Positions 3,278 to 24,065 are shown, counted from the stretch's first letter. The stretch is 24,065 bases of DNA from Halalkalibacterium halodurans (GCF_004376175.1 NZ_SNUY01000054.1:1-24065), one strand, 5' to 3'. The notes: a model not told the origin generated them from the letters alone. Numbers and translations are program-made.

Positions 3278-3334
3278 TTTTACAGTTTTCCACAATACCA
3301 CTATATAACCTTTCTTTAAGAAATTCGTCCACAA
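3263..3334 (-). promoter_or_regulatory. Three direct copies of TTGTGGA(A/C) between the activator gene and HNH (candidate activator-dependent late promoter or leader)
   Basis: On the plus strand, ttttccacaa occurs at 3263-3272 and 3286-3295, and tccacaa at 3328-3334. A TATATAGT -10-like element on the minus strand lies between them, with no canonical -35. Confidence 0.3.
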
Positions 3335-3343
3335 TATTACTCA

Positions 3344-3802: not shown

Positions 3803-3806
3803 CGTA

Positions 3807-6672: not shown

Positions 6673-6895
6673 AACAGGTAAAACCTAGCTTCTGTAATTG
6701 CTTTATTCTTCTAATCTGTAACAGGCGAGGTTTCTTTCCGGGAGCCTTTAATTCTATAAAAGCCATCTTCCCATGTGGTAAAAGCACTAGGCGGTCTGGC
6801 ATTCCATCTAAACCTGGGCTAACAAACTTCGCTGCAATGCCTCCCATCTTTTTTACCTCAGCCACCAGTTTCTTTTCTATATATTTTTCAAGCAT
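6614..6895 (-). CDS. VRR-NUC domain nuclease
   Basis: The sequence MLEKYIEKKLVAEVKKMGG...GMPDRLVLLPHGKMAFIELKAPGKKPRLLQIRRIKQL..GF matches the VRR-NUC D..(E/D)xK pattern. The ATG at 6895 is preceded by GGGAGGT. The longer track ORF to 6979 has no RBS and runs through a repeat tract. Confidence 0.85.
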   Translation of the reverse strand: MLEKYIEKKLVAEVKKMGGIAAKFVSPGLDGMPDRLVLLPHGKMAFIELKAPGKKPRLLQIRRIKQLQKLGFTCYVIDDVKQIGGILGEIQSS

Positions 6896-6952
6896 AAATA
6901 CCTCCCATATAAAAAGGCTCGGAACAAGAAAACAACTTTGACCCAATTTTCC

Positions 6953-6980
6953 TATACGCGCGTGTATGCGTGTATGCACA
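6953..6980. repeat. 28-nt perfect alternating pyrimidine-purine tract containing a tandem 8-mer (cgtgtatg x2)
   Basis: tatacgcgcgtgtatgcgtgtatgcaca alternates pyrimidine and purine at every position. cgtgtatg occurs at 6961-6968 and 6969-6976. Confidence 0.9.
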
Positions 6981-7027
6981 AGCTACTATTACTTCTTTTT
7001 ACTATTTATAAATAAATTAGGATACTT

Positions 7028-7207
7028 CTTGTTCCTCTTGTTCCAAACCGTTGATTTTCCTTGTCATTACTTACTTTAGGGAAAGAACTAGTATGGGAAC
7101 AAAGTAAGGGACAACTTAGCTTTGTTCCTCAACTCGGGAATAAGCTCGTTGCTTTCCATAGATAGGAAAGTTACTTGTTCCATTCTTGTTCCCAGTGTAC
7201 TTGTTCC
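7028..7207. repeat. Iteron-like array: five perfect CTTGTTCC copies plus two degenerate copies
   Basis: cttgttcc occurs at 7028-7035, 7037-7044, 7174-7181, 7185-7192 and 7200-7207. tttgttcc is at 7121-7128 and the inverted ggaacaaa at 7096-7103. The array straddles the primase stop codon (7116) and is adjacent to an AT-rich stretch (6985-7022). Confidence 0.8.
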
Positions 7208-9482
7208 ACTCACTAATCTTTCTCATAATGGCACCGATGGCATAAGAATCAGAAGGTCTCATGGATGATGCATCTTTTCCAAAACATTCGCACCAAATCT
7301 CCATATTGCAGACAAGGGTCCTTTTTACTGTTCCAACACGGGTGCCACCGCCAAACTCGCTACCACCGAGGAAGTTTCTACGCTCGTACAAAGACATCGT
7401 GTCCCAATCATCCGGTAAGAGCGTATCCAAGTAAGTGCGAACTAGTCCTTCTCGTTCATCTGTTTCCATAGCATCTGCCTGTTCACTGGTTGCCATGGTT
7501 ACATCATCACCTTCAAGGTAGAGTTTTTCGCCCTTCTCATAAAGAACTAGAGCCTCTGCCCAAATCTGCTGTACTTCTTCTTTAGTCATCTGCCAAGCTT
7601 TCTTTCTACTGTTACCACTAATGCGGACTGGCCAAAATCTGCGGTTGCCCGTAATATCACGAAGAAAACCGCTTTCCGCATTGGTAGAACCTACAATCAC
7701 GCATTGACGGGGATGGCTTTCGACGTTGACCCCATAACTTGCCCGGTACTTATCGTCCGCCCTCGAAATAAAGGACTTCACAATCTCCACATCCGTCTTA
7801 CGCATTCCCGCAAGTTCACCTAGTTCCAACAACCAATATCCTTGAAGTTTTTCAGCACCTGATTTATCTTTCATGTCTGTAATAGTCAAACTGTCTGAAA
7901 ACCAATCTCCAGCAAGCTTAGCAAAGAAGGTTGATTTACCGATGCCTTGAGGACCGTTTAAGATCAAAACACTATCAAACTTTGTGCCTGGTCTATAAAT
8001 ACGGGCTACCGCTGCAACCATCGTTTTGCGAATAATTGCTTTTGTGTAAGAATTATCTGTTGCACCGAAATAATCAATTAGTAGATTTTCTACTCGGCTA
8101 ATACCATCCCATTTTGGTAGGGAATCTAGGTACTCCTTAACAGGGTGGTAGGCTCGTTCAGCCGCTACCGCTAACACAGCATCCTTGGTCTTGGTAGGAG
8201 AATAGACCCCGTATTTGCCGCTTAAGTACACCTTCAGCAGTGCATTGTCTGAATCATTCCAACCCGCCTTGATCTGTTCCCAAGGCAGACCACCTTTGGC
8301 ATCAATACCATCACGGTGGCAGTTGAAAGCGATATGCTGTAAATCCTTATCATGCCTAATAATCAGGACGATGTTGTCTAATGTGTCTTTTATCCGACCT
8401 TGCTTATCCAATTCCAAACCTGTCTGCCAATCCTCATCACTAAACTCCTCTTCAGCTTGGGCTTGTCTTTCCTTAGCAAACTCAGATTTTACCACTTCAT
8501 CTTTTATAGCAAACTCGCACATTGCCACAAAAGACGGCATCTTACTAGGAGCTATAGTAGTGGAAGCTCTATCATCTAAAGTACCGAATTTATGAATACG
8601 AACGAGATCAAAAGCATTTAACAGCAGGCCACTTGCAGGATCAGTAGCATGGTGGCTGTATGCGAATTTATCATCATAGATAATCACACCCGCACTACTG
8701 TCGGCTGGAATATAGTCATAGCGACCTTCCATAGCAGATGGTGCATAAATTGCACCTAAGAATTTCTCTATTGCTTCACGAACGGGATAGGCACGACAGA
8801 ATGTTCCTACCACACCTTCCTTTAAAAGAGGATCTGCTTGTTCTTTAAGACTGCGATTTATAACTTCAGACTGCCTGCTTGATACCGGCCAAGTTGATGT
8901 ATCCCGCCAGTTTTCATATTTTGAAAGATAAACATCAGGGTCAAGCAATTCTCCATCCTGCTCTTCATAGACAAATTCACCATTAGAGGAAGTGGATGGC
9001 CAATACATTATGCGATGGGCTTCATAAGTCGTATCATCGAAAAGGTCAATACCGATTTCTTTTGCCACCATACGTCCAACAGCTGCATATTCTTCTTCGC
9101 TGATCTCACGAGCAAGTGGAACGATAAGTCTGAGTCTTGGATTTTCCGGTGTGTGCTTATGGGTGGAGTATACACAGCATTTGAAATCGAAAAGCATACT
9201 GATTTGCTCCCAGATATCTGGTCTACCATAATCCATATCAAGGGTAAGCAAAGAACGGCAGAGAACATTGCCCTTCTTTCGCCTTCCTTCTTTTAAATGT
9301 CCTCCGACAAAGCCGCCCACATCTTTGATATCATCTTGCTGGCCCTTTTTAAGTTTCCGGTATTCTTCTACCGTTTCCGTAGTGCGTTGGGTTGTCTTTA
9401 CACGGGAGCAAAAATCCTCCCAAGAGATATCTTTGTTTTTCCATTTCTTGTCCATCCGGCTGTTGCCCACAGCGATTTTCAT
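7116..9482 (-). CDS. Phage/plasmid primase-helicase, VirE (virulence-associated protein E) family with an N-terminal primase-like domain
   Basis: This is a 788-aa protein with Walker A LNGPQGIGKSTF and a D5/VirE-like C-terminal NTPase region (GYWLLELGELAGMRK...CVIVGSTN...RRFWPV). The N-terminal region is typical of VirE_N/prim-pol proteins. The RBS is GGAGG. Confidence 0.9.
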   Translation of the reverse strand: MKIAVGNSRMDKKWKNKDISWEDFCSRVKTTQRTTETVEEYRKLKKGQQDDIKDVGGFVGGHLKEGRRKKGNVLCRSLLTLDMDYGRPDIWEQISMLFDFKCCVYSTHKHTPENPRLRLIVPLAREISEEEYAAVGRMVAKEIGIDLFDDTTYEAHRIMYWPSTSSNGEFVYEEQDGELLDPDVYLSKYENWRDTSTWPVSSRQSEVINRSLKEQADPLLKEGVVGTFCRAYPVREAIEKFLGAIYAPSAMEGRYDYIPADSSAGVIIYDDKFAYSHHATDPASGLLLNAFDLVRIHKFGTLDDRASTTIAPSKMPSFVAMCEFAIKDEVVKSEFAKERQAQAEEEFSDEDWQTGLELDKQGRIKDTLDNIVLIIRHDKDLQHIAFNCHRDGIDAKGGLPWEQIKAGWNDSDNALLKVYLSGKYGVYSPTKTKDAVLAVAAERAYHPVKEYLDSLPKWDGISRVENLLIDYFGATDNSYTKAIIRKTMVAAVARIYRPGTKFDSVLILNGPQGIGKSTFFAKLAGDWFSDSLTITDMKDKSGAEKLQGYWLLELGELAGMRKTDVEIVKSFISRADDKYRASYGVNVESHPRQCVIVGSTNAESGFLRDITGNRRFWPVRISGNSRKKAWQMTKEEVQQIWAEALVLYEKGEKLYLEGDDVTMATSEQADAMETDEREGLVRTYLDTLLPDDWDTMSLYERRNFLGGSEFGGGTRVGTVKRTLVCNMEIWCECFGKDASSMRPSDSYAIGAIMRKISEWNKYTGNKNGTSNFPIYGKQRAYSRVEEQS

Positions 9483-9913
9483 AAGCTTTCGACCTCCTCA
9501 TGCTCCGGACTAAAATACCTGACCGTTTGTCTACGTTTCTTGGCTACTTCAATCTCCCTTGCCATACCGCTTGAAATGGTATTGCCTAGCACCCAAACCT
9601 CGGAGCATTTACCCATGAGCACGATGTCCATAAAAATGGCAAGTTCCCGTTCCTCAGGATTTTCATCATCCATAAACTGCGGAAACATAAGGTGGGGAGC
9701 AATTGGTATACAATTACTTTCCAAGGCAAACCTGCAAAAGCTACGAGCCTTTTCAACGTTTCCTTCTACATCACCGGAATAGGGAGAACAGATATATACA
9801 AGCGGCTTAAAGGCAGATTTTTTCTCTGCCTTTTCCTTTCTCATTATGTTGGTTAGTGCTTCATGGGGAGTTGGGTCATGGTATCCTTCATGGTTAAATT
9901 TGTTGATTCCCAT
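9479..9913 (-). CDS. Nucleoside 2-deoxyribosyltransferase-like (DUF4406/DUF1937-type) phage protein
   Basis: The core LVYICSPYSGD...NVEKARSFCRFALESNCIPIAPHLMFPQFMDD..ERELAIFMDIVLMGKCSEVWVLG..ISSGMAREIEVA resembles that fold family. The assignment is from memory of the family pattern only. Both gene ends overlap their neighbours (TAATG at 9913, a 4-nt overlap at 9479-9482). Confidence 0.5.
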   Translation of the reverse strand: MGINKFNHEGYHDPTPHEALTNIMRKEKAEKKSAFKPLVYICSPYSGDVEGNVEKARSFCRFALESNCIPIAPHLMFPQFMDDENPEERELAIFMDIVLMGKCSEVWVLGNTISSGMAREIEVAKKRRQTVRYFSPEHEEVESL

Positions 9914-10665
9914 TACACACCCTCCATTTCTATCTGCGGCAAAATACCGTCCGCCTTCATCAGTTCGTAAATGAAGAGTCTGCCTTTTTGAGTCCAGTAT
10001 GTATGGACCTTTGTATGCTGTTCTCCGTTCCTACCTAGGTAGCTATGTGTCTTTGTACTGGTGTATTCTTTTTCCGCATGCTTCTGATATAAAAGCCAAA
10101 TGCCGCCTTGTTTAAACTGGACGCCCTTTTTATTGAGATAGCGGTTCATCCAAATAGCTGATTTACCGTAATCTTTGGCAATTGCTGATGTGGAAATGAG
10201 GTCTTTGCAATTTAAAACCACATCGTAATAGGACACTTTCGGTTTCATTTCTGCAATTTGCTGATTCTGAACAGCAACCGTACCTTCAAGCACTTTATTT
10301 TGTTTTCTTACTTGAGTTAGCTGTTGATTGGCAATTTGAAGTGCCCTTGCCATGATTGCTTCTGGGGAATTCCATCTTCTTTCTATTTCAAGAAAGTATT
10401 GGCGGCACTCTTTTCCTTTTCGAGTACGCTGTATCATGCATAGCTCTTTTGCCATATCTAATGTTATTTGATGATCTACAGCTGGTCTTCCACCTGTACT
10501 TTCCGACAGAAATGTCGAAAAGTCCGCCCCTTCCTCAAATCCGTACTCACACATTCTTGGAAACCATTTATCATAAGGTGTTTTTACTTCCAAGGTTTCA
10601 TGTAAATCACGACCGAGTACGGTTGGTCGTTGATTTTCATAATTGATTTTTACTAATTCGTCCAT
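9913..10665 (-). CDS. Phage antirepressor (AntA/AntB-type N-terminal domain plus KilA-C/ANT C-terminal domain)
   Basis: The N-terminus reads TVLGRDLHETLEVKTPYDKWFPRMCEYGFEEGADF...DHQITLDMAKELCMIQRTRKGKECRQYFLEIERRW. The C-terminus reads ISTSAIAKDYGKSAIWMNRYLNKKGVQFKQGGIWLLY. The ATG at 10665 is preceded by GGAGGT; the track start at 10683 is a TTG lying inside that RBS. Confidence 0.85.
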   Translation of the reverse strand: MDELVKINYENQRPTVLGRDLHETLEVKTPYDKWFPRMCEYGFEEGADFSTFLSESTGGRPAVDHQITLDMAKELCMIQRTRKGKECRQYFLEIERRWNSPEAIMARALQIANQQLTQVRKQNKVLEGTVAVQNQQIAEMKPKVSYYDVVLNCKDLISTSAIAKDYGKSAIWMNRYLNKKGVQFKQGGIWLLYQKHAEKEYTSTKTHSYLGRNGEQHTKVHTYWTQKGRLFIYELMKADGILPQIEMEGV

Positions 10666-10704
10666 ACGAATTACCTCCTGCAATATAGTCAGAGGAAAGT
10701 TCCT

Positions 10705-12720
10705 CTACCTAATAGCCACAGGAGGAGGCGTTTCCGTATCCTGCGTCCACACATAACGTAGACTGAAATCGTCCAACTCGTGGTCACTCGCGGTCACAGT
10801 CACAGTCGTGGATGCGGATGGAGACCAATCCTCGCTTCCGTTTATTTCGAAATCAATGTTGGGAGCAGCACGTTCCACATGGACGTCAACCGTTGCTTTC
10901 AAGTCCTCTGGATTCCGAACATCCTCGGGCAGCTGGAGCTCTCCTGTGAACGTATATGTCCCCATTGTCCAGTGGTCATATTCCGGTTCCCCGTCGTCCC
11001 ATACAACGTCCAATGGAACGTTCAATTCCACCGTATCTCCTTTTTTCAAGGCAACCTCCGCCTGGGACGGCAGACCTATGCGCGAACGTTCAACCCCAGT
11101 AGTAACGTGAATATCATCTAGATTGGAAACCGCTACGATTTCCTGATAACCAGCAACAGAAACCGTAACGTTGTCGCTTGCCATACCTCCATATTCCGTT
11201 TTAACGGTCACCTCCACGTGAAGTTCTCCTTCGCTGCTCGTGTCGAGCAGCAGCGTATCAGCGGACCCTGCAGAAGCATCATCAACGAACCATTCAACGC
11301 TCGTGATATCAAAATGGCTATGTTCATATTCCACCGTTAAGGAAATTTCCGTGCCAAGTGCGAACTCAATTGGTTCGGGTACTCTCTCACCATCGTAAAG
11401 GATTGTTACGTCCGGTTCAGATTCAAATGCGACAAAAGCAAACCCTTGTGTGTCAGCGTATTCTTCCGTCGTCGATCCTGTATTACCGATTAACGTAAGT
11501 TCAGAAGGGTTGTTCGCAAAAACATTTGACCAAAACTCAATCTCTGGATTGTGAATCACGACATCAGTAAGGTTATTATCTTCAAAAGCGTTAGGCCAAA
11601 TCTGCTCTACACTTTCAGGAATGACTACTTTCGTCAGCATGTTTTTGCTAAAAGTATAGTTATTAATAATGGTCAGGCGATTAGGCAGTTCAACTTCAGT
11701 AAGGTTATTATTGTAAAAAGCACTATCCCCGATCGCCGTCACACTGTCAGGAATAACGACAGACTCCAGTGCGTTATTCATAAAAGCAGCTGCGTTAATT
11801 CTTGTCACGCTGTCCGGAATGACCACTTCCTTCAACCGGTTATACTCAAAAGCATAGCTGCCGATGGTCGTCACACCATCCGGAATGACCACAGATTCCA
11901 GGCGATTCCCGGAAAAAGCATTTTGCCCAATCGTGGCCAAGCCGTTCCCATAGGTGATCTCGGTTAGTCTGTTGTTTTTAAAAGCATCTTGTCCTATCGG
12001 TGTCACACGATCCGGGATCATTAATGTCCCCAGCTGGTTTTCCTCAAAAGCCCGATCGCCAATCGTCGTGACATTTTCGCCAATGACAACGTTTTGCAGG
12101 CGGTTCTGGGCAAATGCCCAATTGCCAATCGAAGTCACACTATCTGGAATGGTCACTTGTGTAATAGGGTTCCTTGATCTAAACCACGAAGTATCCCCTG
12201 TGAAAGCATAATTCCCGATGGTCGTCAGCGTCTCAGGCAAGGTCACCGCTGTAAGCCGATTATCCTGGAAAGCCCGGTCCCCGATCGAGATCACACCATC
12301 CGGAAGGATTAATTCAGTAAGCTGATTACCATAGAAAGCCCGCTCCCCAATCTGCGTCACCTTCAATCCACCGATTTCACTTGGAATCTCCAGCGTGGTC
12401 GACGAAGAGCCGTTCCAGCCCGTGATCGTCGCTGTACCGTCTCCATTGTCAGCGTATTCAAAATCGCTGTCCATGTCCATGATTGTATAGCCGTGATCGC
12501 CATCATGTTCTCCTGACATTTGATAAGCCAGCTCTGAAGGAATCACCAGCTCGGTGTCTGTACTGTTATCGTGGGAATTTATCGTGTTTCCGTTATCTCG
12601 CTCCCACGACAAGTCAGCTGATTCGTCCGCGTTCACCTGCAAAACAGGTGATAATGGAGCCAATAATAAAACAATAATGACGAGCCATGAAGTCAATGTC
12701 CTGTTCCTTTTATTCACCAA
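10705..12720 (-). CDS. Secreted BspA-type leucine-rich-repeat protein with C-terminal Ig-like region and no recognisable anchor
   Basis: The signal peptide is MVNKRNRTLTSWLVIIVLLLAPLSPVLQVNA/DES. About 13 tandem 22-aa repeats follow the pattern V(V/T)IPDxVTxIGxxAFxxNxLxx. A beta-rich region with acidic stretches follows. The TTG start is preceded by AAGGAG. GC content is host-like, unlike the phage block. Confidence 0.85.
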   Translation of the reverse strand: MVNKRNRTLTSWLVIIVLLLAPLSPVLQVNADESADLSWERDNGNTINSHDNSTDTELVIPSELAYQMSGEHDGDHGYTIMDMDSDFEYADNGDGTATITGWNGSSSTTLEIPSEIGGLKVTQIGERAFYGNQLTELILPDGVISIGDRAFQDNRLTAVTLPETLTTIGNYAFTGDTSWFRSRNPITQVTIPDSVTSIGNWAFAQNRLQNVVIGENVTTIGDRAFEENQLGTLMIPDRVTPIGQDAFKNNRLTEITYGNGLATIGQNAFSGNRLESVVIPDGVTTIGSYAFEYNRLKEVVIPDSVTRINAAAFMNNALESVVIPDSVTAIGDSAFYNNNLTEVELPNRLTIINNYTFSKNMLTKVVIPESVEQIWPNAFEDNNLTDVVIHNPEIEFWSNVFANNPSELTLIGNTGSTTEEYADTQGFAFVAFESEPDVTILYDGERVPEPIEFALGTEISLTVEYEHSHFDITSVEWFVDDASAGSADTLLLDTSSEGELHVEVTVKTEYGGMASDNVTVSVAGYQEIVAVSNLDDIHVTTGVERSRIGLPSQAEVALKKGDTVELNVPLDVVWDDGEPEYDHWTMGTYTFTGELQLPEDVRNPEDLKATVDVHVERAAPNIDFEINGSEDWSPSASTTVTVTASDHELDDFSLRYVWTQDTETPPPVAIR
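11506..12396 (-). repeat. Coding tandem repeats (about 13 x 66 bp) of the LRR domain
   Basis: The periodic motif IPD(S/G)VTxIGxxAF...N.L spans aa 109-405 of the 671-aa protein. Confidence 0.8.
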
Positions 12721-13534: not shown

Positions 13535-15286
13535 CTAACAGGATTCATTTAGTTGCAGTAACTTGCGCCAGCCCCCTAACGCTGTTATATCTTCTGCTCC
13601 GTCTGCTGCATATGCCTCACAGACAAAGCCCGGAACCTCACTGCCATCAGCAAGCTCGACTTTGCCAATACCAAGCGGCGCTGGAATCATCTTTGTAAAT
13701 TTCCCAAATTCGGAAAGCGGCATTTCCCAAATTTCTAGCTCAATTGATCCACCGCTGCCATCATTCTTTTTTATCATTCCAGGCTTTGCCGGCTCGGATG
13801 GCAATTTAACGAGTTGATATACCGGGGCTGACATGTCTTCACGCATAAAACGAGCACGGCACTCCTGCATTTGCTTTTCTAACGGTAACCCTCTCATGTG
13901 TAATCCGCAAACAGCAATCAAAGTCTTCTCTTCTTCGGATTGAGTGCTTGATTGCAAGAATAAATTAGCCGCTCCGCGAATCAAACCTTCCCCCTCTGCT
14001 AAGCCAAATATCGTGATGCCAAACGGTAGATGCACATCAGCCTCTCCTGCCGGAATCGCAACAGCGCACATATCTAGCAAATTACAATGATTCGTATAGC
14101 GTCCCATCTCACTGTTGGTTCCAATTGGATTTTCACGTACTTGGTCGCGCGTCCACGTTCCCCCTGCTGTCGGAAGAACGAAAACGCTATTTTCGAGAAG
14201 CTTCTGCGCCTGACGTTTATAGGCTTGAAGCTGATGTTGCGCCCGGAAAACAGCTGCTGCATCATACTGGCTTGCAGAACCAGAACGAAGCACCTCTTCT
14301 GTCACGGGGAAAGTCGCGCCTGGATGCCCTTCGACAAACTCCCCGAGTGACGCCCAGCGTTCTGCTACCATCGGTCCGCCATATAAAAGCTCAGCTGCAT
14401 CTGAAAGGAACGTAGTGTCGACATAATCTACGTCCACACCTAAGCATTCAATTTGAGCAACAGTACGTTCCCAGGCATTCTGATACTTATTAGCAAAAGG
14501 TCCATAAAACTCCGGTGCCTGCTTCGGTAATACAAACCGTTTAGGGAGCGATGCATTGGGCACTGGTAATTCCCGTGACCACGGATCCTCCTCCTCAAAT
14601 CCACGTGCCACACTGTCGACTAAAATAGCATCCTCAATACGATGGGAGAAAACCGTTACACAATCCAAACTCGCACAAGCCGGAACTACACCTTTTGTTG
14701 ACCAAGCTCCAAGACTCGGTTTATATCCAACTAGATTATTCAACAATGCTGGAATTCGGCCAGATCCTGCTGTATCGGTTCCTAATCCAAATACGGCTTG
14801 ACCACGAGCGACTGAAACCGCTGATCCTGAGCTTGAACCGCCACTAATTAATTCTGGACGAAGCGAATTATGAGTTTCACCAAACGGGCTGCGTGTCCCG
14901 ACTAATCCTGTTGCAAATTGATCGAGGTTTGCTTTTCCAACTGGAATCGCACCTGCAGCAATCAACCGCGCCACAACCGCCGCATCCTCGTTCGGCTGAT
15001 ACGCATATTCCGGGCAGCCTGCTGTTGTTGGAACCCCAGCTAAATCAATATTGTCTTTAATGGCAAATGGAATTCCCCAGAGAGGTGAACTCTCGATATC
15101 AAGAGAGTTCAGTCTTTCTAAGTAAGGATGGATCAGCTCAAGGGAAGGTGGAGTAATCCAAATATTCATGTCTGCGTCTGCTTTCGCTCGTTCAATAATT
15201 TCGAGAACAACTTCTTTTGGAGTCAGTTTCTTCCTATAATATTGTTCTCTTAACCATTCAGCCGTTAATTGATACGGAATGTTCAT
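13535..15286 (-). CDS. Allophanate hydrolase (amidase-signature family with C-terminal AtzF-type domain)
   Basis: The amidase signature is GGSSSGSAVSVA...GTDTAGSGRIPA and the protein is 583 aa. Its start overlaps the carboxylase stop (ATGA at 15283-15286). Confidence 0.9.
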   Translation of the reverse strand: MNIPYQLTAEWLREQYYRKKLTPKEVVLEIIERAKADADMNIWITPPSLELIHPYLERLNSLDIESSPLWGIPFAIKDNIDLAGVPTTAGCPEYAYQPNEDAAVVARLIAAGAIPVGKANLDQFATGLVGTRSPFGETHNSLRPELISGGSSSGSAVSVARGQAVFGLGTDTAGSGRIPALLNNLVGYKPSLGAWSTKGVVPACASLDCVTVFSHRIEDAILVDSVARGFEEEDPWSRELPVPNASLPKRFVLPKQAPEFYGPFANKYQNAWERTVAQIECLGVDVDYVDTTFLSDAAELLYGGPMVAERWASLGEFVEGHPGATFPVTEEVLRSGSASQYDAAAVFRAQHQLQAYKRQAQKLLENSVFVLPTAGGTWTRDQVRENPIGTNSEMGRYTNHCNLLDMCAVAIPAGEADVHLPFGITIFGLAEGEGLIRGAANLFLQSSTQSEEEKTLIAVCGLHMRGLPLEKQMQECRARFMREDMSAPVYQLVKLPSEPAKPGMIKKNDGSGGSIELEIWEMPLSEFGKFTKMIPAPLGIGKVELADGSEVPGFVCEAYAADGAEDITALGGWRKLLQLNESC

Positions 15287-18200
15287 GATACCGACACCGC
15301 CTCTTCCTTTTCTTGTCGAATGCCAACAATGAGTTGACCTGCATGCACTTCATCACCTGGTTTGACGTAAATGTTGTCGATATAGCCGTCACATGTTGCC
15401 TGCTGAGGAAATTCCATTTTCATGCTTTCTTCGATTAACACCGTTTCGCCCTTTTTAACGAATTGACCAGGCTCAATTAGCACTTTCCAAACACTTCCCG
15501 GCATGGAGCAACGAACACCGACAACTCCCTGAGGAAGCTCTTCTTCTTCCTTTTCAACAATTGTATCCTGCTCTGAGATGTACTCCGCAAGACCTTGTTT
15601 CTTCCAGCTTTCGCGCTCAGCTCTAAACGCATCCTGCTGCTTCTTACGGAACACAGTGATTTCTTCCTCAATTGACGCTAAAAAGGCTAAATAATCCCCC
15701 AGTTTAAAAGTCGTTTCGGTAATATCTACTTCAAAGCGGCCACGCGGGAAATCTTCACGGAGCTTAAGCAGCTCATCGGCACTTACTGGGTAGAACTGAA
15801 TTTGATCAAAGAAACGAAGCAGCCATGGCTTACCTTCTTCAAAGTTCTTTGTTGAATGAAGCTTATTCCACATTTGAATCGTCCGACCGACAAACTGATA
15901 TCCGCCAGGGCCTTCCATTCCGTAGACACACATATACGCGCCACCGATTCCAACGGCATTTTCCGGAGTCCAAGTACGTGCCGGATTGTATTTTGTTGTG
16001 ACAAGACGGTGGCGCGGATCGATTGGAGTCGCCACTGGAGCTCCTAAATACACATCACCTAAGCCCATAACTAAATAGTTTGCATTGAATACGACATCTT
16101 TTACTTCATCTAAATTGTTCAAACCGTTAATGCGGCGGATAAATTCCAAGTTACTTGGGCACCACGGTGCATCTGGACGGACATTTTTTTGATAGCGATC
16201 CGTTGCAAGCTGTGTCGCTGGATCATCCCAAGATAACGGAAGCTTAACGATACGAGATGGCACTTCAATTTCCTCAAGCGGCGGCAGCTGGCTGTCGAGC
16301 TCCATTATTTTCACTGCGGCTTCTTGTACGGTTGTTTTCGTTCGGTCAATATGAACTTGTAACGAGCGAATCCCCGGTGTTAGTTCAATGTACGGAATGT
16401 CACCGCAATCTTTAATCGCATCCATTAAGACATGAGCTTGAAAACGAAGCAATAAATCAAGCTCCATGTCTCCGTATTCAACAAGTAGATATTCATCGCC
16501 TGAGCAGCGAATCGTCATCGGGAATCGTCTGTTTTCCTCCTGTGCCAAAATCGGATAATTGGAATCAATCTCTCTTTTCTCTGGCAGCACACTCTCGACA
16601 CGGACATTCGTTCTTTTTCCTTCGCCAATCGCCATTAATTGCTTTTCCTGCTCCTGCCTGAGTTCGTTCGCATCATCAAGAGTTAACAGTTTAAAACGGA
16701 TTGTATCACCTGGATGCAGCTGTCCAAGCTTCCAGAATTCAGCCGATGCCGTTGTGACGGGACAAACGAAGCCCCCTAAGCTCGGGCCATCCGGGCCTAG
16801 TAAAATCGGCATATCTCCTGTTAAATCAAGCGTTCCAACAGCATACGCATTATCATGGATGTTCGATGGGTGCAAACCCGCATCTCCGCCATCTTCGCGC
16901 GTCCACTTAGGCGCAGGTCCAATTAAACGGACACCCGTCCGAGAGCTGTTAAAATGTACGTCAAAGCTTGTTTCCGTTAATTGCGTTAAGTATTCCGGTT
17001 CTAAAAACTCCTCCGTACAATGCGGACCAGGAATCACACCGATCGTCCACGTATTCGTCATTCTTGGTCGTGAAGGAAGATCAAGCTCATTTATTTCAAC
17101 TGGCTCCACTCCACCGTTAACGTTTAACACATCGCCAGGACGTAGAGCACGACCACCATGACCGCCAAAACCGCCCAATGTAAACGTTGCGGCACTTCCG
17201 AGAGTAAGCGGCATATCAAAACCGCCGGCAACCAATAAGTAGCTGCGCATCCCTATTTTCGCTTCTCCGAATTCAAGCACTTGACCTTTTTTCGCTAAAA
17301 TCGGCTGATACAGTGGAACATTTTTTCCATCTAAATGGGCGTCCATGTCAGCCCCTGTCAGGCAAAACCAAATATCATTTCTAAATTTGTACGAACCACC
17401 GCGTAATGTCAGCTCAAGTCCTGGTGCCGTGTCATCGTTGCCAAGTAGTTTATTCCCCACTCGGAATGAAAGTGGATCCATTGGGCCGCATGGCGGAACT
17501 CCAACATCCCAGTAACCAGTTCTTCCAGGGAAATCTTGTACTGTCGTTTGCACACCGCCATCCAAGACTTCAATTGCGTGTTCTGCTGGCTCAAAGTCAT
17601 TTAACATTCGGGTATAGACGCGACCTGCTCGACACTCTTCGTTTAGTAATAACGCTTGCAAATATTGCAGGTTCGTCGTGACCCCGTAAAACCGTGTTTC
17701 TTCTAACGCTTGGTGAAGCTTGTTTATCGCATCTTCGCGATTATTACCGTGAACGATTATTTTCGCCAGCATCGGATCATAAAGCGAAGTCACCGTGACA
17801 CCGTCACGTAGCCATGTTTCAACACGAGCTTTCTTCGATAGTACAACTTGATCTACTTGCCCAGCACTTGGCCGGAAGTTTTGTAGGCAATCTTCTGCAT
17901 AAATACGCGCTTGAATACTATGTCCTGCTGGCTGCTGCACAAGTGACGGTAAATCCTTCAATTCATTTGCCGCTTCTTTCACCATCCATTCCACTAAGTC
18001 AACGCCTAACACTTCTTCTGTAACACCATGCTCAACTTGAAGTCTCGTATTCACTTCTAGGAAGTAGAACTCCTCCGTTTCAGGGTCATATAAAAATTCG
18101 ACCGTACCCGCACTACGGTAACCCACCTCTTCAGCCAAGCTCTTTGACGCGGCAAACATTTTTTCTCGCACGGAAGCGGATAGATTAGGAGCTGGACTTT

Positions 18201-18918
18201 CCTCAATTACCTTTTGGTTTCGGCGCTGAATCGAGCAGTCACGCTCTCCCAATGTGACGACTTCCCCTAAAGCCGTTCCGAAGATTTGTACTTCCACATG
18301 ACGCGCTTTTGCAATATATTTTTCTAAAAAGAGTCCGCCATTATTAAAGTTTGTTTCAGCAAGATGACGAACCCCTTCGTACGCTTGTCTTAATGCCTTC
18401 TCGTCTTCACAAACACGCATACCTATTCCGCCGCCGCCCGCAGTGCTTTTTAAAATAACAGGGTAGCCAATTTTTTGGGCTTCCCGGAGCGCTTCATCTA
18501 ATGCTGTCAATAAATTCGTACCTGGCAGCAACGGGACGCCCGCTCTCATTGCAATTTCACGAGCCGAGTGCTTCAACCCGAACATCTCCATTTGCTCCCC
18601 AGTTGGTCCGATAAAGGCAATGCCCTTTTCCATACAGGCACGAGCGAAATCAGCATTCTCACTTAAGAAGCCGTAGCCTGGATGAATCGCTTCAGCCCCC
18701 GTTTTTACGGCTGTTTCCAAAATAAGCTCAGCATTTAAATAACTATCTTTTGCCGGGCCTTCTCCGATTAGCACGGCTTCATCAGCATGCTCGACATGGA
18801 GGCTGTCCTGGTCAGCTTCTGTATAGACAGCAACCGATTTCACCCCTAATTTTTTTAATGTTCGCTCTATTCGAACCGCAATAGCGCCGCGGTTTGCGAT
18901 TAAAACTTTCTTAAACAT
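15283..18918 (-). CDS. Urea-carboxylase-family biotin enzyme, predicted guanidine carboxylase (given the ykkC leader)
   Basis: This is a 1211-aa protein. It has an N-terminal biotin carboxylase domain (KVLIANRGAIAVRI, ATP-grasp GGGGIGM), a central KipA/KipI-like carboxyltransferase region, and a C-terminal biotinyl domain (ESMKMEF). Confidence 0.95.
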   Translation of the reverse strand: MFKKVLIANRGAIAVRIERTLKKLGVKSVAVYTEADQDSLHVEHADEAVLIGEGPAKDSYLNAELILETAVKTGAEAIHPGYGFLSENADFARACMEKGIAFIGPTGEQMEMFGLKHSAREIAMRAGVPLLPGTNLLTALDEALREAQKIGYPVILKSTAGGGGIGMRVCEDEKALRQAYEGVRHLAETNFNNGGLFLEKYIAKARHVEVQIFGTALGEVVTLGERDCSIQRRNQKVIEESPAPNLSASVREKMFAASKSLAEEVGYRSAGTVEFLYDPETEEFYFLEVNTRLQVEHGVTEEVLGVDLVEWMVKEAANELKDLPSLVQQPAGHSIQARIYAEDCLQNFRPSAGQVDQVVLSKKARVETWLRDGVTVTSLYDPMLAKIIVHGNNREDAINKLHQALEETRFYGVTTNLQYLQALLLNEECRAGRVYTRMLNDFEPAEHAIEVLDGGVQTTVQDFPGRTGYWDVGVPPCGPMDPLSFRVGNKLLGNDDTAPGLELTLRGGSYKFRNDIWFCLTGADMDAHLDGKNVPLYQPILAKKGQVLEFGEAKIGMRSYLLVAGGFDMPLTLGSAATFTLGGFGGHGGRALRPGDVLNVNGGVEPVEINELDLPSRPRMTNTWTIGVIPGPHCTEEFLEPEYLTQLTETSFDVHFNSSRTGVRLIGPAPKWTREDGGDAGLHPSNIHDNAYAVGTLDLTGDMPILLGPDGPSLGGFVCPVTTASAEFWKLGQLHPGDTIRFKLLTLDDANELRQEQEKQLMAIGEGKRTNVRVESVLPEKREIDSNYPILAQEENRRFPMTIRCSGDEYLLVEYGDMELDLLLRFQAHVLMDAIKDCGDIPYIELTPGIRSLQVHIDRTKTTVQEAAVKIMELDSQLPPLEEIEVPSRIVKLPLSWDDPATQLATDRYQKNVRPDAPWCPSNLEFIRRINGLNNLDEVKDVVFNANYLVMGLGDVYLGAPVATPIDPRHRLVTTKYNPARTWTPENAVGIGGAYMCVYGMEGPGGYQFVGRTIQMWNKLHSTKNFEEGKPWLLRFFDQIQFYPVSADELLKLREDFPRGRFEVDITETTFKLGDYLAFLASIEEEITVFRKKQQDAFRAERESWKKQGLAEYISEQDTIVEKEEEELPQGVVGVRCSMPGSVWKVLIEPGQFVKKGETVLIEESMKMEFPQQATCDGYIDNIYVKPGDEVHAGQLIVGIRQEKEEAVSVS

Positions 18919-18984
18919 CTAAAAACCTCCACTCTTTTTATCTATAGGGAGAAGATTCCAAGAAAACCTCCCTCTCAGAAAATG

Positions 18985-19635
18985 TTATTTTTCCCAGATT
19001 AGTACTCGTATCGGTGTCGGATTGTAAGCATTACAAGGGTTATTTAACTGTGGACAATTACTAATTAACGCTGTCGTACGGCATTCTGCTTTCATTTCAA
19101 CGTAACGATTTGGACCCGATACTCCATCTTCGAATGTGAGACCTCCCTCTGGTGTAACAGGGACATTCATAAAAAAGTTAATGTTCGGTGCTAAATCCCG
19201 CTTCGTATAATTGCCGTCGTATTTTGCCATTTGCAGCATGAACGTATCGCGGCAATTGTGCATAGGCAGCGTGTCATGTGCGTAACGAACAGTATTACTT
19301 TGGGCTGAACACGCCCCGCCTAATGTATCATGGCGGCCACATGTATCAGCGACAATCGTCATTAATCGTTTCCCCGATTCTGCTCTAAGGATCGACCCTG
19401 TTGATAAATAAATATTTTTTTGCCCGACAATCGTCGCCACAGCACTATAATGATCATCTGGATTCTCAGCATCAAAAAATAACGTGTCCGCTGCTTGATT
19501 TCCCTCTAAGTCCTCAATTCGAAGTACTTGCCCCGGCTCTATTTCACGCATCCAGCCATCTCCTGCTTGAATAACCTCACTATAAATCGCTTCTTCCACT
19601 TTGCGCTCGCTTTCAACTCGATTAAAAACAGCCAT
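18985..19635 (-). CDS. Urea-carboxylase-associated DUF1989 protein (candidate carboxyguanidine deiminase subunit)
   Basis: This is a 216-aa paralogue of the upstream gene. The shared pattern is ...D(T)LGG...S..., NCRDTF versus the [24 protein letters not shown] blocks. It holds the conserved position between the riboswitch and the carboxylase. Confidence 0.85.
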
Positions 19636-19647
19636 GTGATCTCCTCC

Positions 19648-20358
19648 TTATTTCATTAATGTTTCGTATTCCCAAGTATTTTCAAAAGCACGACGGTTTT
19701 CAGGGCGGAAATTCAAACAAACATCATCTTCTGTGACTTCATCAGCTTCCACCACTTCAATCGTGACTGGAACAGACGGATACGTCGTTCTAGGATCTAG
19801 CGGGTTTGGCGTGTTTGATAGGAGAACAAGCAGATCCATCTCCGTTCTCAATGTAACCGTTGCTCCTTTTGGACAATGGCCAAGAACATAATTCATATCT
19901 CCTGCCTCATCACAGAACACTTTAGAAAATAGATTTACATTCGGAACGAAATCTCTCTTTCCTAACCCATTTCGCACAAGCTCTACTAAAAAATTTTCCT
20001 GCCCGCTGCGGTACCATTCATTACGTAACTTTTGATATGTTGTTTTTCCGTATTTATCATCTGTCAATTCTCTCGTTGTGTAACCAGAGATGGAATCATG
20101 CCAGCCAAGTGTGTCATCGACAATACTCGCCATCACCCGACCGTTGTCACTCATAAGAACATGCCCTGTTGTTAAATGAGAGGTATGCTGCGCTTTTAGA
20201 GTATCCGGCATATTGTAGCGCTCGCTTGTATCGTTCGGATTATAGAGCAACAGAGAAAGATTTGCGCCTTCCTCAAGTGCGGTAAATCGCACTTGCTTCC
20301 CTTTACTAATCACACCCGACCATTTTCCTCCTGCAGGAATCGTTTTAGTCCAGTTCAT
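19648..20358 (-). CDS. Urea-carboxylase-associated DUF1989 protein (candidate carboxyguanidine deiminase subunit)
   Basis: This 236-aa protein is the first gene after the riboswitch. The RBS GGGAGG lies 8 nt before the ATG. It is a paralogue of 18985-19635. Confidence 0.85.
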   Translation of the reverse strand: MNWTKTIPAGGKWSGVISKGKQVRFTALEEGANLSLLLYNPNDTSERYNMPDTLKAQHTSHLTTGHVLMSDNGRVMASIVDDTLGWHDSISGYTTRELTDDKYGKTTYQKLRNEWYRSGQENFLVELVRNGLGKRDFVPNVNLFSKVFCDEAGDMNYVLGHCPKGATVTLRTEMDLLVLLSNTPNPLDPRTTYPSVPVTIEVVEADEVTEDDVCLNFRPENRRAFENTWEYETLMK

Positions 20359-20384
20359 TTCTATTTCCTCCCTGTTTGAAATGA

Positions 20385-20428
20385 TAATAAAAAAGGATAA
20401 AAGCCTGGGAGAAGTCTCCCAGGCTTTT
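20385..20428 (-). terminator. Riboswitch expression-platform terminator
   Basis: The stem pairs aaaagcctgggaga (20399-20412) with tctcccaggctttt (20415-20428). On the minus strand it is followed by AUCCUUUUUUAUUAU. The 5' arm is shared with the conserved 3' block of the aptamer. Confidence 0.8.
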
Positions 20429-20512
20429 ATCCTTCCGTGTAATACAGATTATCTGTACCGCTCTCTCTCGGACCAGGCTTGATGATTCATTCATCAACGG
20501 AACCCTAGATAG
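20415..20512 (-). promoter_or_regulatory. ykkC: Guanidine-I (ykkC) riboswitch aptamer
   Basis: The minus strand reads CUAGGGUUCCG-UUGAUGAAUGAAUCAUCAA-GCCUGGUCCGAGAGAGAGCG-GUACAGAUAAUCUGUAU-UACACGGAAGGAUAAAAGCCUGGGAGA. All the conserved ykkC blocks are present in order: CUAGGGUUCCG, GGUCCGAGAG and ACACGG(A/C)GGGAUAAAAGCC(C/U)GGGAGA. Confidence 0.9.
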
Positions 20513-20565
20513 CTTTTTCGTCCTCAACGCTTTGCGAGAACCTTTATTCGATTAACTTAATTCGA

Positions 20566-20594
20566 AGTATAAAACACAATGAATCCGGCAACAA
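20566..20594 (-). promoter_or_regulatory. Candidate sigma-A promoter of the guanidine operon
   Basis: On the minus strand, TTGTTG (-35, 20589-20594) is followed by a 17-nt spacer and TATACT (-10, 20566-20571). The promoter lies about 45 nt upstream of the riboswitch 5' end. Confidence 0.5.
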
Positions 20595-20600
20595 GGAGTT

Positions 20601-20617
20601 TGTTAGAAAATGTTACA
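20601..20617. promoter_or_regulatory. TnrA/GlnR box upstream of the guanidine-operon promoter
   Basis: TGTTAGAAAATGTTACA is a perfect match to TGTNAN7TNACA. It lies 6 bp upstream of the candidate -35, with its centre about 50 bp from the inferred TSS. Confidence 0.65.
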
Positions 20618-20751
20618 CAGTTTTCTCCAAAAAAACAAGCAGCGGATTTTCCTAGAAGCCATGTGCAAAGCCGATACGATTTTTGCACTTGACTGATTTA
20701 AGCGTGTAACGCATGGAGACTATGCCTTTCCCCTCTTCTATTAAAAAAGCG

Positions 20752-20768
20752 TGTCAGGTTATATCACA
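20752..20768. promoter_or_regulatory. TnrA/GlnR box upstream of the permease promoter
   Basis: TGTCAGGTTATATCACA is a perfect match to TGTNAN7TNACA. It lies 6 bp upstream of TTGAAT. Confidence 0.65.
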
Positions 20769-20774
20769 CATAAG

Positions 20775-20804
20775 TTGAATTCATTACGAATTTCATACAA
20801 GAAT
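20775..20804 (+). promoter_or_regulatory. Candidate promoter of the APC permease gene
   Basis: TTGAAT (20775-20780) is followed by an 18-nt spacer and AAGAAT (20799-20804). The -10 is weak, as expected for an activator-dependent promoter. Confidence 0.35.
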
Positions 20805-20905
20805 TAACTCCATAATCATTTCAAAAATTGGCGAAACAAAATCATTATCTTAGAAAAATTTTAAAGAAGTAGTCGTAGTTATTATCAAAAGGAGCTGGTT
20901 AAAGC

Positions 20906-22273
20906 GTGCGGAAAGAAACAGATTTAAAAAGAACGTTAACCTTGTTTCAAGTTGTCATGCTTGGTCTTGCATGGAATACCCCGATGATTTATTTTTCTGT
21001 TTTTGGTGTAGCGTATGAAGGTTCAAGCGGTTTTTTAACTCCCGCATACACACTAGCTGTCCTAGCTGTACTCTTTACAGGGGCGAGTTATGCTGTTATG
21101 GCGAAAAAAATACCGATTTCAGGATCAGCTTATACGTTTGTCAAAAAAACAATGAACCCGAAGCTCGGTTTTATCGCAGGCTGGATTTTACTATTTAACT
21201 ACCTTTTTGCACCGATTATTGCTTGCATTACGTTTGGAATTTTTCTGAATGCCCAATTCCCGCAAGTACCACCATATGCATGGATTATCGGATTAACACT
21301 ACTCCTCGCTCTTATTAGCATTGTAGGAGTCAATTCTTCAGCGAACATTAGCAGCTTCTTCGTTTTATTGCAAATTATCTTTATTGTCGTTTTCTGCGGC
21401 TTTATGATTAAAGGTTTGATTAACGGTACAGGTGAAGGAACACTTGTATCAATGGAGCCATTTATCAATAGCGACATGTCGCTCTCTGTTGTTTTAGCAG
21501 GCGCCTCCATCGTCATCTTCTCTTTCTTGGGATTTGATACGATGACGACTTTGTCAGAAGAAACAATCAATCCGAAGAAAACGATCCCGCGTGCCATCTT
21601 TATTATGATTGGGATCGTCGGTATTCTCCATGTCTGTACATCTTATTTTATTCAATTAATTGTCCCGAATTTTACATTTCAAAACCCAGATTCAGCTGCT
21701 TTAGAATTAGTTAATATCGTAGGCGGCAGCCTGCTAGGCTCCATATTCATTACCGTCTTAATTGCCGCCATTTTCACGCAGGGATTGGCTTCCGTCACAG
21801 CTGTTTCAAGGCTTCTGTACGTCATGGGGCGCGACTCAATGCTACCGAAAAAATTCTTCGGCTATGTTCATCCTAAATATAAAACACCAGTGTTAAATAT
21901 TATTTTTTCATCCGTCATTACACTATCAGCGATTTTTATCTCTGTTGATGCCGCCCTTCGCTTTGTCAATTTTGGGGCGCTCACAACTTTCTTCTTTGTC
22001 AACCTATGTGTCATCACCATGTACGTTAAGAACAACGAGCAGCGCAACCGCTCCATTAAAGGGATTGTAACTTACTTACTGTCACCGCTGGTTGGCGCCG
22101 CCTTTATTACTTGGCTCCTATTCTTATTAGACTTCACGACGTTAATTGGTGGATTCATCTGGATCGCACTCGGCATGCTCTATCTTATGTTCTTAGCGAA
22201 AGGGGGTAAACGACCGTTTCCACAATCTCAGGCAGAACAAGTAGAGGCCGTAGAAGAGAAAAAAGCGATTTAA
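20906..22273 (+). CDS. APC-superfamily amino acid/polyamine/organocation permease
   Basis: This 455-aa protein has about 12 hydrophobic segments and an APC-type N-terminal pattern (LTLFQVVMLGLAWNTPM...SGSAYTFV). The GTG start lies 11 nt after GGAG. It is divergent from the guanidine operon. Confidence 0.9.
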   Translation: MRKETDLKRTLTLFQVVMLGLAWNTPMIYFSVFGVAYEGSSGFLTPAYTLAVLAVLFTGASYAVMAKKIPISGSAYTFVKKTMNPKLGFIAGWILLFNYLFAPIIACITFGIFLNAQFPQVPPYAWIIGLTLLLALISIVGVNSSANISSFFVLLQIIFIVVFCGFMIKGLINGTGEGTLVSMEPFINSDMSLSVVLAGASIVIFSFLGFDTMTTLSEETINPKKTIPRAIFIMIGIVGILHVCTSYFIQLIVPNFTFQNPDSAALELVNIVGGSLLGSIFITVLIAAIFTQGLASVTAVSRLLYVMGRDSMLPKKFFGYVHPKYKTPVLNIIFSSVITLSAIFISVDAALRFVNFGALTTFFFVNLCVITMYVKNNEQRNRSIKGIVTYLLSPLVGAAFITWLLFLLDFTTLIGGFIWIALGMLYLMFLAKGGKRPFPQSQAEQVEAVEEKKAI

Positions 22274-22499: not shown

Positions 22500-24065
22500 G
22501 AGTCAATTTCATAATTTGAACCCTTAGTCTCGCAAGGTTTTCAAGGCACGAAAAAAGGAGTACCTCCCCAAAAGTCGAATGAGTTAAGTGACGAAACAAA
22601 ACTACAGACTGGAGGAAGACTCCCTATGCCTATTATACGACAAGAAAGCCTGTTTGACCTGCATGATTTATATGAGTTAGAGCCTACCCATCGTTTTGAT
22701 GCGGTTTTTTCAGCAATTGATATCAACCCGATTCTTGCGGTCGTGTCAAAAAAAGCCCTATACGGTGCGCCTGTTCAGCTCACCTATTCCGCCATGATCT
22801 ACTCACTCGTCGCTCGAATTCTTGAGCGAATTCCGACAATAAAGGATTTGATTAAACGTCTGAAACACGATTTTATGTTCCGATTGGATTGTGGATTCCT
22901 TCTTTCTGATGCGATTCCATCTGAAGCATCTTATTCAAGAATGCTCTCTAAAATAGCAGAATCACCTGTTCTTGAACAGGTTTAAGAACAGCTCATCCAT
23001 CAAGCGATAGCAGAAGGATTTATCACCGATGACACGATCGCCATTGATGCGACTCACATTGAAGCGAGAGACCAAGCCCCAGCGAAAAAAGAAAAGCCTA
23101 GGTCTGAGCCAAAAAAGCGCGGCCGCAAATCAAAAGAAGAGAAAGAAAAATGGCTTCAAGAACAAGCGGAACAAGAAGCCGTTCGTCCGATTTTCGAGAA
23201 AAAGATTGAAGCCCAACTTGACGCGTCTTTAGTCGAGTTGCGATCCGCTGTCCCCCTTGATCCTAAGTGGGGCATCAAGAAAAACAGTGAAGGAAAAAAC
23301 ATTTTTTGGTTTGGCTACAAAGGCCACTTCGCGGTTGGAGCCAAAAGCCAGTATATCCTTCAGTCGCTCTTTTCCTCGGGAAACCTGAACGATGGAAAAG
23401 CAGCCATCCCTTTATTAAAAGGACTGCAAGAGCGTCTTTTTGAATTAAAAATCGCCTTTAGCACACTCGATGCAGGGTATGATGCCCCTGCGATTTACGA
23501 ACAACTCTATCGAATGAAGACTGGGGCTGTCATTGCTTACAACAAGCGAAATGAACCGAATATAGAAGGATTCGATCACCATTTTGCCCCTACGTGTGTT
23601 CGAGAGCATTCGTATCGGTACGACAGTTACGACGCGAGATACGAGACGTTAAAATACACACGACCGAAAGAATGCAAAGGCTGTCCGTTAGCGCAAGATA
23701 CCCTCTGTCAAAAGGTGTATAAAGTCAAAATCACCACCGATTTGAGACGGTATACATCCCCAGCTCGCGGTTCGAAAGCATGGAAAACCCTTTACAAGCA
23801 ACGAAGTTCAGTCGAGCGAGTCATTGCGTATCTAAAAGAATTCTTCCAATTAAACAATATTCGCTATCGCACAGGAAAACGAGCAAAAGTACAATTTGAT
23901 TTGACGCATTTGATTTATAACGCGGCGAAGCTCGCGTGTGATCGTATAGCCAAGTCCCTTTCTAGCAAGCAGACTAGTCAAGCCGCGTAATTAATTTTTT
24001 AAAAACACTAAAAGCGAAATGGGGGTCGTCTAACAATCGTGAACTAGGCTTTATGAAATTGATTC
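22500..24065 (+). mobile_element. Second IS of the same superfamily (right end at or beyond the window edge)
   Basis: gagtcaatttcataa (22500-22514) matches the reverse complement of 24051-24065 (gaatcaatttcataa) at 14/15 positions. The element encloses a transposase frame homologous to, but divergent from, the one at 4940-6142. Confidence 0.75.
22626..23990 (+). pseudogene. DDE transposase (IS4/IS5 superfamily) interrupted by a single in-frame TAA
   Basis: ORFs 22626-22985 and 23238-23990 are in the same frame (offset 612 = 204 codons). I translated 22986-23237 in that frame without a stop (EQLIHQAIAEGFITDDTIAIDATHIEARDQ...). The only break is TAA at 22983-22985. The DDE/YREK elements are present (LDAGYD, YKQRSSVERVIAYLK). 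Confidence 0.85.

Follow-up and report, generated by a model that had tools for sequence, protein, structure and literature searches.

Predicted TnrA/GlnR-type operators at the divergent promoters of a guanidine carboxylase operon and a permease gene in Halalkalibacterium halodurans

The stretch of Halalkalibacterium halodurans DNA analysed here (GCF_004376175.1, NZ_SNUY01000054.1:1-24065; the whole 24,065-bp stretch is referred to as the window) carries a four-gene guanidine carboxylase pathway operon on the minus strand and a divergent APC-superfamily permease gene on the plus strand. The 547-bp intergenic region between them (20359–20905) contains two predicted operators of the type bound by the nitrogen regulators TnrA and GlnR. 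Box 1, TGTTAGAAAATGTTACA (20601–20617), belongs to the operon promoter and box 2, TGTCAGGTTATATCACA (20752–20768), to the permease promoter; neither is assigned a strand. A TnrA/GlnR-controlled promoter placed in series with a known riboswitch is a well-supported reading of this arrangement. The regulon type is known, and the guanidine carboxylase operon and the permease would be new in it. The boxes are probably operators for activation by TnrA under nitrogen limitation, acting on the operon in series with a guanidine-I riboswitch.

The two boxes are the only exact matches to TGTNAN7TNACA in the whole window, where 0.48 are expected. This pattern search confirms both positions given in an initial annotation of the same DNA, which counted 10 specified positions in the consensus where there are 8. 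The annotation also held two matches to be very unlikely by chance, and the shuffles bear this out: when the intergenic region (63% A+T) is shuffled with dinucleotides preserved, at least two matches appear in 4 of 200,000 cases (~2e-5; mean 0.0074). Boxes with one mismatch number 14 in the window against 11.2 expected, which is chance level, so that only the two exact sites stand out. Box 1 agrees at every position with TGTNANAWWWTNTNACA, the extended Bacillus subtilis TnrA consensus (Yoshida 2003, as quoted in PMC4475385), and box 2 departs from it at position 7 only, where it has G.

Both boxes are also conserved. The genomes nearest to the window are the Bacillaceae Halalkalibacter urbisdiaboli (89% identity for the first operon protein and 90% for the permease) and H. 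flavus, and the intergenic region was aligned with those of both species and of Alteribacillus, all of which share the divergent layout. Fifteen of the 16 specified box columns are invariant, compared with 6 of 18 box N columns and 42 of 283 other intergenic columns (15%). Box 1 keeps all 8 specified positions in the four genomes while its N positions vary; box 2 keeps 7 of 8, with a single A-to-G change in H. flavus. Selection on both boxes as TnrA/GlnR-type operators is thus a supported conclusion. The distance between the box centres is 151, 59, 91 and 118 bp in the four genomes, and the DNA between the boxes is not conserved. In the window this spacer (20618–20751) is ~92 bp longer than that of H. 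urbisdiaboli and is conserved in no relative. It contains a short inverted repeat, TGCAAA...TTTGCA, which suggests no function.

Each box occupies the same place with respect to its own predicted promoter. The operon promoter, read from the sequence, has a weak −35 element TTGTTG (3/6; 20589–20594, minus strand) and, after a 17-bp spacer, a −10 element TATACT (20566–20571, minus strand) with 6/6 positions invariant in the four genomes. On the given strand these elements appear as CAACAA and AGTATA, and the gap to box 1 is 20595–20600. Transcription of the operon is predicted to start near 20559. On the plus strand, the permease promoter has a predicted −35 element TTGAAT (20775–20780), separated from box 2 by 20769–20774, and an 18-bp spacer before the −10 element AAGAAT (20799–20804), in which 5/6 positions are invariant (AAAAAT in Alteribacillus); the start would lie near 20811. 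In all four aligned genomes exactly 6 bp separate the TTG of each −35 from its own box, and the distance of box 2 to the permease-side TTG and −10 is likewise conserved. The initial annotation had placed each box 6 bp upstream of a candidate −35 and the box centres about 50 bp upstream of the inferred starts. Our reading of the sequence agrees on both points, and gives centres at about −50 for box 1 and −51 for box 2 when the −10 hexamer is numbered canonically from −12 to −7. The position of the boxes just upstream of the −35 therefore holds relative to predicted, phylogenetically conserved hexamers. A site upstream of the −35 is a recognised activation position for TnrA/GlnR (PMC6191146). 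A consensus sigma-70 promoter scan of 20300–20950, which demands at least 4/6 matches per hexamer, returns no match because the hexamers fall under its thresholds, and hexamers of this kind are what activator-dependent promoters would show. The promoters were defined by phylogenetic footprinting. Taken jointly with the whole model of TnrA activation, it is likely that the region forms two back-to-back activator-dependent sigma-A promoters, each with an operator 6 bp upstream of a weak −35.

The operon leader contains a guanidine-I riboswitch aptamer (RF00442; 20414–20519, minus strand). It scores 90.5 bits with E=2.1e-15, the gathering score being 63, and the match to the Rfam covariance model covers positions 1–107 of 107. 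An intrinsic terminator (20385–20436, minus strand), found by a terminator scan and a minimum free energy (MFE) fold, consists of a 20-bp stem (20436..20391) followed by a U tract. It overlaps the 3′ part of the aptamer, and the MFE fold of the leader has z = −6.0. The riboswitch is a transcriptional ON switch with the terminator as its expression platform, so that promoter and riboswitch stand in series on the operon. Box 1 starts 109 nt upstream of the riboswitch core (103–121 nt in Bacillaceae) and 259 bp ahead of the first operon gene's start codon.

The operon (13535–20358, minus strand) was assigned with Pfam and NCBIfam models above curated cut-offs. It encodes DUF1989/UAAP protein 1 (20358–19648) and DUF1989/UAAP protein 2 (19635–18985), both carboxyguanidine deiminase subunits by family, a urea/guanidine carboxylase of 1211 aa (18918–15283) and an allophanate hydrolase (15286–13535). 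The families TIGR02712, TIGR03425, TIGR03424 and TIGR02713/NF006043 are all above their cut-offs. In the carboxylase active site, Asp is associated with guanidine and Asn with urea. Guanidine as the substrate of the present enzyme is a by-family assignment made from the riboswitch association only. The assignment of the guanidine carboxylase pathway follows PMC12186494.

The arrangement of box, promoter and riboswitch is widespread. The comparison set comprises 80 Bacillota loci around homologues of the first operon gene, plus the window; where single loci are cited they carry the prefix L. In these loci 112 guanidine-I riboswitches were located by their conserved core, and an exact box starts 95–140 nt upstream of the core in 76 of them; among Bacillaceae, 34 of 40 riboswitches have a box. 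Exact boxes occur at 7.97/kb in 100-nt windows upstream of the riboswitches and at 0.064/kb elsewhere, a ~125-fold enrichment. The enrichment is specific for the half-site spacer: the riboswitch-upstream windows hold 79 matches with N7, one each with N5 and N6, and none with N8 or N9, which excludes both a composition effect and sites of the CRP/FNR type. The complete module, consisting of the box, 6 bp, a weak −35 TTGnnn, 17 bp and TATACT, is present in ~35 Bacillaceae riboswitch promoters, nearly all of them. The 27 distinct boxes from Bacillaceae give the profile TGTnAGAwAAtCTnACA, in agreement with TGTNANAWWWTNTNACA, the TnrA consensus of B. subtilis. Boxes are absent from Clostridia-type and Treponema loci that have homologous operons, and this absence fits the taxonomic range of TnrA/GlnR (PMC3412718). 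An identical contig of 9.5 kb is found in a Logan assembly.

Paenibacillus and Cohnella have a different layout. Their operon promoter is strong (TTGACA) and carries a −10-overlapping box of the form TGT[TATGTT]TAnTAACA 35–45 nt upstream of the riboswitch core (L006, L007, L010, L012, L014–L016, L023, L024, L026, L033, L047, L053, L067, L069 and L070). A second box follows ~94 bp farther upstream, within the stretch shared with a divergent permease gene under riboswitch control. These genera appear to keep nitrogen control, built differently from that of Bacillaceae.

A further small hairpin (GUUCUCG...UUGAGGAC; 20520–20541, minus strand) lies directly 5′ of the aptamer in the operon leader, outside the Rfam RF00442 model. 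It has 6–8 bp and is preceded by AUAAAG and followed by AAAAAGCU. Single-sequence folds recover it in 33 of 36 Bacillaceae leaders (L002–L066), 10–35 nt upstream of the core, and its stems vary on both sides (GUUCUC/GAGGAC, GUUUCC/GGAAAC, GUUCAC/GUGAAC, CUUCUC/GAGAAG, GUUUUC/GAAAAC). RNAalifold returns no consensus for this 5′ leader hairpin owing to loop-length misalignment, hence the use of single-sequence folds. It may possibly serve as a 5′ stabiliser or as an extra switch helix.

The permease (20906–22273, plus strand; 455 aa) matches AA_permease and AA_permease_2 and reaches the cut-off of no NCBIfam permease model, TIGR03428 (‘permease, urea carboxylase system’) included. It would represent an uncharacterised APC subfamily and is a candidate guanidine importer unlike the known ABC systems. 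Its leader (20811–20905, plus strand; ~95 nt) carries neither riboswitch nor attenuator. Rfam gives no match even at E<=10, and a cryptic riboswitch or attenuator was considered and ruled out on this ground and because the leader is structured below its shuffles (z = +1.8). Orthologues of the permease, with 50–90% identity, adjoin the operon in a further 39 loci. The gene stands in tandem upstream of the operon, carrying a box and a riboswitch of its own, in Neobacillus, Robertmurraya, Metabacillus and others; it is divergent, with a separate riboswitch, in Paenibacillus and Cohnella; and it is divergent, with the box retained and no riboswitch, in Halalkalibacter and Alteribacillus. This synteny, together with the separate riboswitches and boxes in relatives, places the permease in the guanidine regulon, probably as an importer. 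The Halalkalibacter/Alteribacillus lineage appears to have inverted the permease gene, lost its riboswitch and kept the box. In many Bacillaceae two tandem units of box, promoter and riboswitch are seen ~1.6 kb apart, one before the permease and one before the operon (two-riboswitch loci L004, L013, L019, L025, L031, L034–L036, L040–L044 and L054).

These elements suggest the following circuit. Under nitrogen limitation, the regulator, most likely TnrA, would be free of feedback-inhibited glutamine synthetase, bind both boxes and recruit RNA polymerase. The plus-strand promoter would then directly express the permease, the probable guanidine importer, through a leader that has no riboswitch. 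The minus-strand leader transcript would stop at the terminator (20436..20385) unless guanidine is bound, and the four-gene operon would be expressed only if nitrogen limitation coincides with the presence of guanidine in the cell. The importer would be a single-input gene; since it needs nitrogen limitation only, the cell could sample for the inducer. These bacteria would probably turn to guanidine only if nitrogen is short and guanidine is at hand. What we infer in this circuit are the points where transcription starts, the identity of the binding protein, the sign of the control and the permease substrate. The initial annotation had described nitrogen control stacked on guanidine sensing; this is supported for the operon, where box and riboswitch are in series, but not for the permease, which has a box and no riboswitch.

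The protein that binds the boxes is likely to be encoded elsewhere. No tnrA or glnR gene is found in the window or in the 80 fetched loci, where the only relevant hit is a weak MerR-family match (L058), and the factor would thus act in trans; nor is there any transcription-factor gene in or near the locus in the window. A database search finds TnrA orthologues of 63–72% identity and near full length in Neobacillus pocheonensis, N. cucumis and Bacillus dakarensis, and these same species carry the box–riboswitch module (L041, L013 and L042, respectively). Kormelink et al. 2012 (PMC3412718) also report TnrA for B. pseudofirmus and, without GlnR, for B. halodurans, B. clausii and B. selenitireducens. 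With orthologues in module-bearing species and TnrA without GlnR in alkaliphilic relatives, TnrA is the likelier protein in the alkaliphilic lineage.

Several observations weigh against activation by TnrA. Besides the lack of a tnrA or glnR gene in the window and the fetched loci, searches of a large protein database with TnrA give no Halalkalibacter entry among the matches listed. The proposed permease −10 is weak (AAGAAT, with an 18-bp spacer). In B. subtilis the site of TnrA-activated promoters lies 49–51 bp upstream, a rule for which the literature search gave no source. The proximal box of Paenibacillaceae overlaps the −10 in a repressor geometry, so that sign and mechanism are not uniform across the loci. 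The remaining point comes from B. subtilis ykkC. TnrA was found bound in vivo by ChIP-on-chip upstream of this gene, at the box TGAAAGAAAATCTTACA located 243 bp before the start codon, and ykkC was placed in the TnrA ‘secondary regulon’, but its expression showed no dependence on tnrA under the conditions tested (Mirouze et al. 2015, PMC4475385). No guanidine was added and the ligand was then not known, and a closed riboswitch could explain this negative result. Guanidine riboswitches were deorphanised only in 2017.

The boxes might instead work mainly by repression at nitrogen excess, through GlnR together with feedback-inhibited glutamine synthetase, with a similar physiological outcome, expression only at nitrogen scarcity, though by another protein and mechanism. 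GlnR and TnrA share TGTNAN7TNACA, and the GlnR site of B. subtilis glnRA is located just upstream of the −35 (PMC6191146). Both boxes of the window keep full TGT/ACA ends, and the box on the −10 of the strong TTGACA promoter in Paenibacillaceae is a repressor layout. Against this, the −35 elements in this lineage are weak, TTGTTG having 3/6, and the box is fixed 6 bp upstream, outside the core promoter. There is one box per promoter and no second overlapping site, unlike glnRA, and the alkaliphilic relatives B. halodurans, B. clausii and B. selenitireducens have TnrA without GlnR (PMC3412718). We consider repression rather unlikely. Binding of the palindromes by another regulator, pathway-specific or of the CRP/FNR type, is far less probable still. 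The half-sites TGTNA/TNACA do resemble those of other families. CRP/FNR half-sites, for instance, are arranged as TGTGA-N6-TCACA. However, the single N6 match against 79 with N7 excludes such spacing, and CRP/FNR-type sites were rejected on this spacer specificity. The inner positions G6, A7, W8–10, T11 and C12 are those of the TnrA consensus, no gene for a regulator is seen within or beside the locus, either in the window or among the loci fetched, and the analogous ykkC box of B. subtilis has a TnrA ChIP signal.

It is also highly improbable that box 2 is an auxiliary site that loops with box 1 to control the operon and is no permease operator. The two boxes do share one intergenic region, and looping models are discussed for paired GlnR sites (PMC6191146). 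Yet the box spacing of the four genomes keeps no conserved helical phase and the intervening DNA is not conserved, whereas the distances of box 2 to the permease TTG (6 bp) and −10 are, and tandem permease genes in other genomes carry a box of their own. The variable spacing speaks against cooperative looping and for one box per promoter. Chance occurrence of functionless matches in AT-rich intergenic DNA, which a short consensus of 8 specified bases in a region of 63% A+T might invite, is effectively refuted by the frequency of ~2e-5 in composition-matched shuffles, by conservation of the boxes across genera while adjoining bases diverge, and by the ~125-fold enrichment at one fixed position across 80 loci.

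The remainder of the window is prophage-like and insertion sequence (IS)-related, and mobile DNA borders the guanidine locus on either side. Directly downstream of the guanidine operon there is a prophage-like block (122–12720, minus strand). It encodes a C-5 DNA methylase, an N6/N4 DNA methylase with a ParB-N domain, an HNH endonuclease and a VRR-NUC protein, as well as a VapE-like primase/helicase, a DUF7768 protein, an AntA/KilAC antirepressor and a 671-aa BspA-type leucine-rich-repeat protein with Big_4. Within 3807–6672 a SNF2-family helicase gene is apparently split by an IS: the N-terminal part is at 6268–6672 and the C-terminal part at 3807–4802, and an intact 400-aa DUF772/DDE_Tnp_1 transposase (4940–6142) lies between the halves. 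A second DUF772 + DDE_Tnp_1 transposase just downstream of the permease (22626–23990) is broken into open reading frames (ORFs) of 119 and 250 aa. The two transposase regions (4940–6142 and 22626–23990) have no megablast-level DNA similarity to each other.

With ~75 counterparts in Bacillaceae and Paenibacillaceae, the locus indicates that the TnrA/GlnR regulon takes in both the guanidine carboxylase pathway and the APC permease, and the guanidine pathway would then serve nitrogen scavenging and not detoxification. How guanidine fits into the bacterial nitrogen economy is still being worked out. The locus offers a reason for the TnrA ChIP signal of 2015 at ykkC and would represent a two-input circuit of nitrogen status and guanidine, in which one logic is built from different parts, NtcA in cyanobacteria and TnrA/GlnR in Firmicutes. 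Whether the coupling of TnrA/GlnR to guanidine-I is a general and ancient rule in Bacilli, with a −50 activator site in Bacillaceae, a −10-overlapping repressor type in Paenibacillaceae and loss of the importer riboswitch in some lineages including that of the window, seems to us evenly balanced. Under such a rule almost every guanidine-I promoter of assimilation genes would have a nitrogen box, and possibly that of the B. subtilis exporter ykkCD as well. An importer without its riboswitch, induced by nitrogen limitation alone, would solve the import of the first inducer molecules. Guanidine would then belong regularly to what soil Bacilli scavenge for nitrogen under this regulon, and the unexplained TnrA ChIP peak at ykkC would be accounted for, the riboswitch gate having been closed at the time. 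The advance is incremental and not surprising, as a specialist would expect nitrogen control of a nitrogen-rich substrate.

Nor is the arrangement categorically new, given a cyanobacterial system from 2025 that is the nearest parallel in function, the ykkC ChIP result of 2015 and an unremarked match in a 2012 supplement. The last is a motif match 190 bp upstream of a ‘urea carboxylase-associated protein 2’ gene of Paenibacillus sp. JDR-2, on which the main text of Kormelink et al. 2012 is silent. Our literature search found no paper that links TnrA/GlnR regulation to urea/guanidine carboxylase or to guanidine riboswitches, and a 2025 guanidine review, which makes no mention of control at the promoter, states that no guanidine-responsive regulators other than riboswitches are known (PMC12186494). 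The initial annotation knew of no AND gate spelled out for this pathway; the logic has more precedent than it supposed, in view of NtcA with guanidine-I in Synechocystis (PMC12704784) and the TnrA ChIP signal at ykkC (PMC4475385).

Among the closest known systems are the TnrA-activated promoters of B. subtilis (amtB-glnK/nrgAB, nasB, gabP and tnrA). They have the same 17-bp inverted repeat TGTNAN7TNACA, extended to TGTNANAWWWTNTNACA, as a single site just upstream of a sub-optimal −35, and their targets serve the uptake or degradation of alternative nitrogen sources (PMC4475385, PMC6191146). Neither the guanidine carboxylase operon nor the APC permease, however, occurs in B. subtilis or in the described regulon, and at the present locus, which is known from sequence alone, a riboswitch follows the promoter in series. 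B. subtilis ykkC shares a TnrA-type box upstream of a guanidine-I riboswitch, the founding one, at a comparable distance from the start codon (243 bp versus 259 bp). It differs in that ykkCD is a guanidine exporter and not an assimilation system and that the ykkC box has one mismatch; the 2015 study did not connect TnrA with guanidine sensing.

In Synechocystis, gdmH was shown experimentally to be under NtcA and a guanidine-I riboswitch, and the importer gimABC under NtcA alone (PMC12704784, 2025). As in the window, a nitrogen activator is combined with guanidine-I on the catabolic operon, while the importer promoter depends on the nitrogen regulator only. Synechocystis belongs to another phylum, and NtcA is a CRP-type protein that recognizes GTA-N8-TAC centred near −42; the enzyme is a guanidine hydrolase rather than a carboxylase, the importer is an ABC and not an APC system, and experimental validation stands there where the present locus is read from its DNA. 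The nif promoter of Paenibacillus polymyxa has the same operator consensus, and there a site upstream of the −35 activates while a proximal or downstream site represses (PMC6191146). Its two GlnR sites resemble the two-box layout of the Paenibacillus and Cohnella guanidine loci, whereas each promoter of the window has a single box and no proximal one of the repressor type, and the target genes are different. The B. subtilis ilv-leu operon (T-box with CodY, TnrA and CcpA; PMC12452182) likewise combines promoter control by a global nitrogen regulator with an RNA switch in the leader of the same transcript. There, in contrast, TnrA represses, the RNA senses tRNA and not guanidine, and the pathway is biosynthetic, not catabolic.

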